64,000 nucleotides of DNA from NCBI RefSeq assembly GCF_003334765.1, contig NZ_QOWT01000002.1; one strand, written 5' to 3'. Positions 49,672 through 50,388 of this stretch are shown piece after piece. How positions within the stretch are numbered: the first letter of the stretch is position 1; each line of letters begins with the position of its first letter. A program made the position numbers and the translations under genes. The DNA is from Escherichia coli (lineage in GTDB: Bacteria; Pseudomonadota; Gammaproteobacteria; Enterobacterales; Enterobacteriaceae). The notes under the pieces were generated by a model. That model did not search any database. It was not told the DNA's origin and saw nothing but the letters and a program-made list of their open reading frames with translations.

Positions 49672-50388
49672 TTATAACTCGTGTCTGTTATGGCGACACG
49701 GGAAAACATCAATATTGTCCTTCACAAATTGCAGTAATATAGAATCAACCTCTCTTGCAAGTTGGTCACAATGTATTATAAGCATTTTGAATATGTCATC
49801 CTCTGTAATCTCGTGAAAATTTTCGGCCTTGTCTTTTAGCTCATCATATCGGATTCTTGCAGTAACCATTTTTTGGGCGAGTTCTAATAACCCCAAAGCT
49901 TGCAATTGCTGGTGAGTATGATCACTTTCAAAAAATATCCCACACTCCATTCCTTCCCAACCAACATATTCATGCCATTCATAAACCAGCATAAATGTTT
50001 GTAAAACTGGCGGTAATAATTGGATATCTGCAAAACCAAACCAAAACTTACGCTTGAGATCCCACTCATATTCAATCGCCAATGCTATATTGTTTAAGGC
50101 ATCTCCGGCATCCTTATTTTTACGCAAAATCAATTCCGTCAGTGTATAGCGTTGTTCATCAATACGCCGAAGAGCTTCTGCAATATCATAGTTTGTAGCC
50201 AACAAAACATTCTCTGCTTCCTGATGAGTGACGTCTGCTTTTGCCGTCAATATATTGATTTGGTCAATATGAAACAACTTGATGGCTTCATCAACATCAC
50301 CGCCAGTCCTCTCTAACAAACGTCTGGCAACCTGGATACCGACAGGTACGTTCTTCCGAAGTTTACGAATTTCACTTAACCATTCCAT
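49672..50388 (-). CDS. yfbN: uncharacterised protein (238 aa)
   Basis: Track ORF 49672..50388; matches YfbN; AT-rich. Confidence 0.82.
   Translation of the reverse strand: MEWLSEIRKLRKNVPVGIQVARRLLERTGGDVDEAIKLFHIDQINILTAKADVTHQEAENVLLATNYDIAEALRRIDEQRYTLTELILRKNKDAGDALNNIALAIEYEWDLKRKFWFGFADIQLLPPVLQTFMLVYEWHEYVGWEGMECGIFFESDHTHQQLQALGLLELAQKMVTARIRYDELKDKAENFHEITEDDIFKMLIIHCDQLAREVDSILLQFVKDNIDVFPCRHNRHEL

Follow-up and report, generated by a model that had tools for sequence, protein, structure and literature searches.

A predicted double UBA-like module joined to an acidic DMP19-like domain in YfbN of Escherichia coli, from a gene inherited independently of elaD

The UBA-like fold serves partners other than ubiquitin in EF-Ts, in the nascent-polypeptide-associated complex (NAC) and in TAP/NXF, so that the fold in itself does not imply ubiquitin binding. 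Domains of this fold generally bind their ligands by the face of helix 1 and loop 1, and where ubiquitin is the ligand its Ile44 patch is contacted by a hydrophobic motif in loop 1, M-G-F/Y in UBA domains and M-F-P in CUE domains. The UBA domain of TNK1 is a five-helix bundle in which the N-terminal and the C-terminal set of three helices are each UBA-like (PMC8429728). DMP19 is an acidic DNA mimic that forms a dimer and whose fold was unique when it was solved (PMC3384305). The present analysis concerns yfbN, a gene in a stretch of 64,000 nucleotides of Escherichia coli DNA (assembly GCF_003334765.1, contig NZ_QOWT01000002.1; below called the window). There is no Pfam model for the YfbN family, the RefSeq product name is only 'protein YfbN', and no discussion of the domains of YfbN was found in the literature mentioning the gene.

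Residues 1-80 of YfbN are predicted with high confidence to form two overlapping UBA-like three-helix bundles with five helices in all. The AlphaFold2 (AF2) model of the full-length protein, obtained with an 8-sequence alignment, has a predicted local distance difference test score (pLDDT) of 91.6 and a predicted template modelling score (pTM) of 0.78, and the same N-terminal helices were found when residues 1-92 were modelled alone (pLDDT 89.1). The five helices (Table 1) are followed by a short helix and then by an all-helical C-terminal domain. Helix 32-51 is common to both units, being helix 3 of the first and helix 1 of the second, and each unit in the model is a compact bundle of three helices, about 40 residues long, with the UBA topology. 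In Foldseek against the PDB the TNK1 UBA came top (E 0.03, probability 1.0, 77 columns); EF-Ts N-domains and NAC UBAs ranked next. The TNK1 UBA aligned across both YfbN repeats over 74-77 residues with 14-29% identity, and hhalign of the YfbN N-terminus against it gave P 3.3e-7 over 51 columns. The overlapping double layout predicted for YfbN is that of the TNK1 UBA and of the UBAP1 SOUBA. Matches obtained with the single YfbN sequence were all sub-threshold but mutually agreeing: the Pfam models UBA_4 (residues 19-42, independent E 0.0032), UBA_HYPK (46-75) and CUE, the NCBIfam NAC model (residues 42-76, E 0.0016, well short of the model's cut-off) and, as the best PDB sequence match, the TNK1 UBA (E 0.093).

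Profiles of each repeat, built from a 50-sequence family alignment, gave a clearer result. The PDB searches with the family profiles returned almost only UBA, CUE, TS-N and NAC domains (E 0.002-2). By hhalign the first unit (UBA1) matched three EF-Ts N-domains with P 1.1e-6, 4.4e-6 and 7.6e-6 over 35-42 columns, and the second unit (UBA2) matched aeNAC (P 1.8e-7), Dcn1 (5.2e-7) and p62 (1.1e-6, with a hand-entered p62 sequence). The best of 200 shuffled controls reached P = 0.008, and the likeness to established UBA-like members (P 1e-6 to 2e-7) is thus beyond chance. For this panel the entry 1efu_B confirmed the E. coli EF-Ts sequence and the aeNAC, TNK1 and Dcn1 sequences were taken from the search output, while the others were entered by hand. 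With such hand-entered sequences UBA1 gave no match to Rad23 UBA1 or UBA2, p62 or the Vps9 CUE (P 0.04-0.5; 0.1-0.5 for Rad23 and Vps9), and the values of UBA2 for Rad23 UBA2 (P 0.0033), Rad23 UBA1 (0.26) and the Vps9 CUE (0.1) were counted as no similarity. The Pfam hidden Markov models of the UBA clan matched none of the 50 family members at E <= 0.001 and 14 of them at E <= 0.1. The N-terminus of YfbN is confirmed as a bacterial member of the UBA-like fold (Pfam clan UBA, SCOP a.5.2).

Two tandem UBA/EF-Ts-N-like motifs, the second repeating the first, had been read from the sequence in the initial annotation, which proposed profile and structure searches of the N-terminus as a check. The AF2 model, the PDB profile searches and hhalign bear out the motifs, the searches returning UBA, CUE, TS-N and NAC matches, and hhalign of one repeat against the other also shows them to be alike, with P 1.1e-5 (38 columns), or 7.5e-5 when the profiles are limited to close relatives. 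The peptides quoted there are residues 14-39 and 51-76 and were correctly recognised, but the limits of the units needed revision: they begin about 10 residues earlier, with helix 1 at 4-13 and about 41-51, and they overlap.

Five helices would also fit a degenerate tandem helix-hairpin-helix, (HhH)2, nucleic-acid-binding domain, since such domains are likewise five-helical. There is a likeness between the HhH consensus and the motif L-x-x-x-[IV]-P-[VI]-G-[IL]-x-x-A-x-x-L-L, and the UBA2 profile reached a summed E of 1e-6 to the HhH repeats of Topo V, but the individual Topo V domain matches are each insignificant. RuvA domain II, ComEA and Pol beta were not matched (P >= 0.013), the G-h-G hairpin is absent with P-V-G and D-V-T in its place, and UBA1 is about neutral in charge and UBA2 acidic. 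An (HhH)2 identity is extremely improbable and was rejected, as there is no canonical match and the hairpins are missing. One Topoisomerase V repeat contains 'AVDYDLER', which is like 'TNYDIAEA' of UBA2.

The most conserved segment of the family is UBA1, with L10, R11, P15, G17, L25 and G30. R11 and P15 are of surface type and about as conserved as the core residues, and because they are near-invariant a ligand-binding site on UBA1 is suggested. The motif of the linker helix is invariant in the close relatives and conserved across the wider family alignment. Loop 1 reads N-V-P-V-G in the first unit of YfbN (I-P-V-G in the family) and A-D-V-T in the second (K-[TA]-G-[VI]-[ST] in the family); as read from the sequence, neither repeat contains an M-G-F/Y or M-F-P loop. 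P15 together with the L38-F39 patch could be CUE-like.

The C-terminal domain carries the motifs E-W-L-x-Y-x-x-x-E-G-F and, at the C-terminus, N-I-x-x-F-P. Residues 94-231 have an isoelectric point of 4.52 and a net charge of -13.8, the family median being -8. In the predicted structure this domain has the DMP19 fold. The Pfam DMP19 model (PF14300/DUF4375) matched one of 50 family members (E 0.076), the PDB profile search gave no DMP19 at E <= 10, and the homologue search with the C-terminal profile found no PF14300-annotated protein and no sequence bridge to DMP19. The relation is a predicted likeness of fold. EF-Tu, RNA polymerase subunits and DnaK came down as well in the His-pulldown by which the DMP19 partner NHTF was found, possibly as contamination (PMC3384305).

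A word-indexed search found 19 close relatives of YfbN only, and an exhaustive HMMER search gave 239 family representatives at 50% clustering, mostly full length with 230-250 amino acids. Genomes were scanned with the 8-sequence alignment as query. The family is found mostly in free-living Bacteroidota of soil and water and in a few Enterobacteriaceae; relatives with 28-36% identity occur in Chitinophaga, Pedobacter, Chryseobacterium, Runella, Thermoflexibacter and an Ignavibacteria metagenome-assembled genome, and the enterobacterial occurrences are in Escherichia, Superficieibacter and two further enterobacterial assemblies. No match to the family was found in phage genomes, and among plasmid records only two megaplasmids of Hymenobacter and a single E. 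coli record matched. All-against-all clustering of open reading frames (ORFs) from 17 loci showed no recurring neighbour besides the enterobacterial nuo/rbn/yfbK/yfbL synteny, and no genes for ubiquitin-like proteins (Ubl), E1, E2, JAB or CE-protease/deubiquitinase (DUB) were found beside family members in the neighbourhoods compared.

Some matches to the family were rejected. Three on short contigs labelled Bacillota, Mycolicibacterium and Methylobacterium, 89-100% identical to E. coli yfbN, were taken as contamination. A 4090-residue NACHT-LRR protein (P0097) with E 1e-27 to the YfbN profile is a false positive of summed repeats; its score sums 29 weak matches between its repeats and profile positions 72-124, which bears on counts of family size. 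A low-GC contig with a 39%-identical YfbN homologue (L005, 1-8167) has a run of about eleven small genes on the same strand, mostly without a Pfam match, the exceptions being NUDIX, alpha/beta hydrolase and DUF1801. Two or three Bacteroidota loci (L016, L017, L018) again have NUDIX and DUF1801 neighbours.

The reading preferred here, with a probability of roughly 40%, is that YfbN combines the predicted double UBA-like module, linker helix and acidic DMP19-like domain in a cytoplasmic protein that binds a bacterial partner stoichiometrically, as an adaptor or inhibitor. The UBA-like module would dock by its loop-1/helix-1 face (L10, R11, P15 and G17) onto a conserved bacterial protein and not onto ubiquitin, and the acidic domain would cover a basic surface of the target, probably a nucleic-acid-binding one, as DMP19 does with NHTF and HU. 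A bacterial rather than a host partner is suggested because the family occurs in Bacteroidota of soil and water and in Enterobacteriaceae, with no recurring neighbour and no phage match. Knock-out of yfbN gave a higher yield of recombinant protein (PMC7376861). The strain list of a study of retron-Sen2 includes pNT3-yfbN for the validation of blockers of the toxin RcaT, and according to its authors RcaT toxicity was relieved by all validated blockers (bioRxiv 10.1101/2020.06.22.160242); as a candidate RcaT blocker YfbN would fit the role of an inhibitor. Both kinds of functional data are indirect.

Several points weigh against this reading. The structure of YfbN and its binding of a partner are predicted only, the relation to DMP19 comes from predicted structure alone, with a single Pfam match among 50 members and no sequence bridge, and acidity is common among cytoplasmic proteins. 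The RcaT screen relied on overexpression and also picked out chaperones, proteases and translation factors, so that an indirect effect is possible. With no conserved neighbour at the 17 loci, the genomic context gives no clue to the target.

A double module without an external ligand, serving as a dimerisation or scaffold element that positions the DMP19-like domain, is an unlikely alternative. The UBA-like dimeriser of Doublesex and the p62 UBA dimer are precedents for dimerising modules of this kind, UBA2 resembles the p62 UBA, and the pTM of the full-length model suggests a fairly fixed interdomain arrangement. DMP19, moreover, acts as a dimer (PMC3384305). The conservation of R11 and P15 at about the level of the core is, however, more typical of a ligand site.

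The identity of that ligand could in one case be guessed from UBA1, which may be a true TS-N domain docking, like the N-domain of EF-Ts, on the G domain of EF-Tu or on a related translational GTPase, so that YfbN would modulate or guard EF-Tu or mimic one of its ligands. The alignments of UBA1 to the three EF-Ts N-domains (P 1.1e-6 to 7.6e-6) are gapless, with YfbN residue n at residue n+1 of E. coli EF-Ts, and L10, R11, G17, L25 and G30 fall on L11, R12, G18, L26 and G31. R13 of Mycobacterium tuberculosis (Mtb) EF-Ts, the equivalent of R11, forms a hydrogen bond with EF-Tu and is required for the complex to form (PMC9529903), and docking of UBA1 on EF-Tu is conceivable because R11 matches this arginine. 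EF-Tu was pulled down among the DMP19-associated proteins (PMC3384305), which is notable because YfbN would fuse an EF-Ts-like to a DMP19-like domain, but EF-Tu is a common pulldown contaminant. The increased recombinant yield of the yfbN knock-out (PMC7376861) points in the same direction, but as a phenotype it is non-specific. Across the EF-Ts signature region the alignment shows identities at L, R, G, L, G, D and A, while T-G is changed to [VI]-P and K-K-A-L to x-x-L-L; the PROSITE-type EF-Ts signature is by inspection not satisfied (T to V/I, G to P, K to R/L), and VPVG replaces the TGAG loop. The second N-domain residue in contact with EF-Tu, Mtb K24, corresponds to position 22, where 60% of the family have Leu, and the EF-Ts core domain (PF00889), which supplies most of the interface, is absent, with no EF_TS Pfam match. 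Binding of EF-Tu or a related GTPase by UBA1 is quite unlikely on this balance.

An extended form of the idea, in which YfbN docks on EF-Tu (or a related GTPase) via Arg11 of UBA1 and presents the acidic DMP19-like domain as a nucleic-acid mimic, is decidedly unlikely. If true, it would make these proteins a new class of EF-Tu regulators, mimics of tRNA or nucleic acid, or decoys against toxins or phage factors that exploit EF-Tu, and the docking could explain the blocking of a retron toxin by YfbN.

The ubiquitin reading joined the fold of YfbN with the position of its gene. The initial annotation pointed to a deubiquitinase-like elaD nearby, which proved correct, as three genes lie between elaD and yfbN and elaD belongs to the true ElaD/SseL family. 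It also suggested, if the motifs were correct, that the island pairs a ubiquitin-family binder with ElaD: the tandem module would bind ubiquitin or a Ubl and act with this CE-clan protease on host Ub/Ubl conjugates or in a bacterial Ubl pathway. The fold is indeed UBA-like, UBA2 resembles the ubiquitin-binding UBAs of Dcn1 and p62, ElaD is a genuine member of a deubiquitinase family (Table 1), and the TNK1 UBA, the best match over two repeats, binds polyubiquitin (PMC8429728). The distribution of the two genes speaks against the pairing. Among 5426 complete E. coli genomes yfbN was found in 980 (about 18%) and elaD in 4477 (about 82%), and at least 3497 had elaD but not yfbN. The gene order in O157:H7 EDL933 is elaD-pseudogene-yfbM-nuoN, with yfbN, yfbO and yfbP absent, and strain MLI104K2 has neither yfbN nor elaD, the interval being occupied by a transposase remnant, a DUF4604 gene and a pseudo-yfbP. 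Conversely, one enterobacterial locus (L001) has the order nuoN-yfbN-rbn without elaD, and two other enterobacterial loci (L003 and L012) have yfbN with yfbL and yfbK and no elaD anywhere from nuoN to rbn. Co-inheritance, which the initial annotation had named as a check, is therefore not seen; the two genes are inherited independently.

Further evidence agrees with this. The strand differs between the two genes, yfbK, yfbL and yfbM lie between them, and a paper on the SlyA regulon lists yfbN and does not mention elaD (PMC5797941); the paper on the distribution of ElaD has nothing on genomic context. Most of the family is in free-living Bacteroidota without neighbouring Ubl, E1, E2 or DUB genes, neither the MGF/Y nor the MFP loop is present, there is no similarity to the Rad23 UBAs or the Vps9 CUE, and inspection of the sequence, the only means used, showed no signal peptide or secretion signal in YfbN. 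The pairing with ElaD is not supported and a role on ubiquitin or Ubl conjugates is very improbable; the closeness of yfbN to elaD in K-12 looks incidental.

The gene order around yfbN is of the E. coli K-12 type, rbn(elaC)-elaD-yfbK-yfbL-yfbM-yfbN-yfbO-yfbP-nuoN. Because gene content differs between genomes and loci, the rbn-nuoN interval is a variable hotspot that gathers unrelated accessory genes. yfbN is a chromosomal, stand-alone, AT-rich gene in this hotspot and is inherited independently of elaD; its GC content is about 0.37, compared with 0.50-0.58 in the flanking core genes. SlyA is an H-NS antagonist. Overexpression of SlyA increased yfbN 2.8-fold (PMC5797941), and the base expression of yfbN is low (PMC9068703). 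From the low GC content, the induction by SlyA and the low base expression, yfbN is labelled here a silenced accessory gene. A scan for promoters and terminators around yfbN gave results no better than shuffled sequence. PADLOC found no defence system for YfbN or six of its neighbours, NCBIfam had no match for YfbM, YfbO or YfbP, and the PHROGs search with YfbN gave a weak match only, to an entry of unknown function.

Table 1. Positions in the window of yfbN, of the parts of its product and of nearby genes.
Feature	Position	Strand	Description and basis
yfbN coding sequence	49672..50388	minus	238 amino acids and stop; ORF list; identical to RefSeq 'protein YfbN'
UBA-like unit 1 (UBA1), EF-Ts N-terminal (TS-N) type, predicted	50254..50379	minus	residues 4-45; AF2 helices 4-13, 18-28, 32-51; hhalign to EF-Ts (P 1.1e-6, 35 columns, no gap); conservation
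UBA-like unit 2 (UBA2), NAC/Dcn1/p62-UBA type, predicted	50149..50268	minus	residues 41-80; AF2 helices 32-51, 55-64, 69-80; hhalign; PDB profile search
Linker helix	50110..50148	minus	residues 81-93; motif [YF]-T-L-T-E-[LR]-I-L-R; AF2 helix 83-90
C-terminal acidic all-helical domain, predicted DMP19-like fold	49696..50109	minus	residues 94-231
elaD	44675..45886	plus	ElaD/SseL family; NF008812, E 9.8e-137
yfbL	47816-48793		longest ORF opens at TTG, six codons 5' of the RefSeq start
yfbM	48896-49399		neighbour of yfbN
yfbO	50543-51019		neighbour of yfbN
yfbP	51075-51926		neighbour of yfbN

The rbn-nuoN interval (about 44500-52000) is AT-rich and highly variable, as seen also at loci L001, L003, L006, L008 and L012, and other Enterobacteriaceae have different small genes there. 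In some strains (NZ_CP122758.1, NZ_CP044293.1) yfbN is split by IS1, which gives two match pieces around the IS1 transposase. A homologue of YfbP adjoins yfbN in Superficieibacter (L012, 6795-7724). The start codon of yfbL is slightly ambiguous, the longest ORF having 325 amino acids and the annotated one about 323.

With these results a y-gene of E. coli K-12 without domain annotation gains a testable architecture, and a family of about 240 clusters without a Pfam model is defined. The tempting but unsupported link between YfbN and ElaD is removed, and a UBA-type fold in a bacterium is once more no proof of ubiquitin. The face with Arg11 and Pro15 and the reported blocking of RcaT are direct starting points toward a partner. 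Should neither the EF-Tu nor the toxin-neutralising idea be right, the impact stays modest.

Compared with the known systems, UBA1 is closest to the TS-N domain of EF-Ts, with which it aligns without gaps over 35-42 residues and has L-R...G...L...G-D...A in common, including the arginine that contacts EF-Tu. YfbN differs in having no core and dimerisation domains, in the loop, which is V-P-V-G and not T-G-A-G, and in the second contact lysine, which is not conserved. UBA2 matches the archaeal and eukaryotic NAC-alpha, Dcn1 and p62 UBAs and has the 'N-Y-D-I..A-L' turn in common with p62, but its loop 1 is K-[TA]-G-[VI]-[ST] in the family and not M-G-F; settings of the nascent-chain, cullin or autophagy kind are not known from bacteria. 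Neisseria DMP19 (PF14300/DUF4375; PDB 3vjz, 3wur) is a DNA mimic, with 12% identity to YfbN and no profile-level link; it is a single-domain protein without UBA-like modules, and DNA mimicry by YfbN is hypothetical. The C-terminal UBA of TNK1 (PDB 7tcy) and the SOUBA of UBAP1 (4ae4) are overlapping UBA solenoids and eukaryotic polyubiquitin binders, whereas YfbN is bacterial, is without the MGF-type loop and is fused to the DMP19-like domain of the model. The UBA-like assignment goes beyond the current annotation of YfbN; the predicted architecture is a TNK1-like double module to which a DMP19-like domain is joined.
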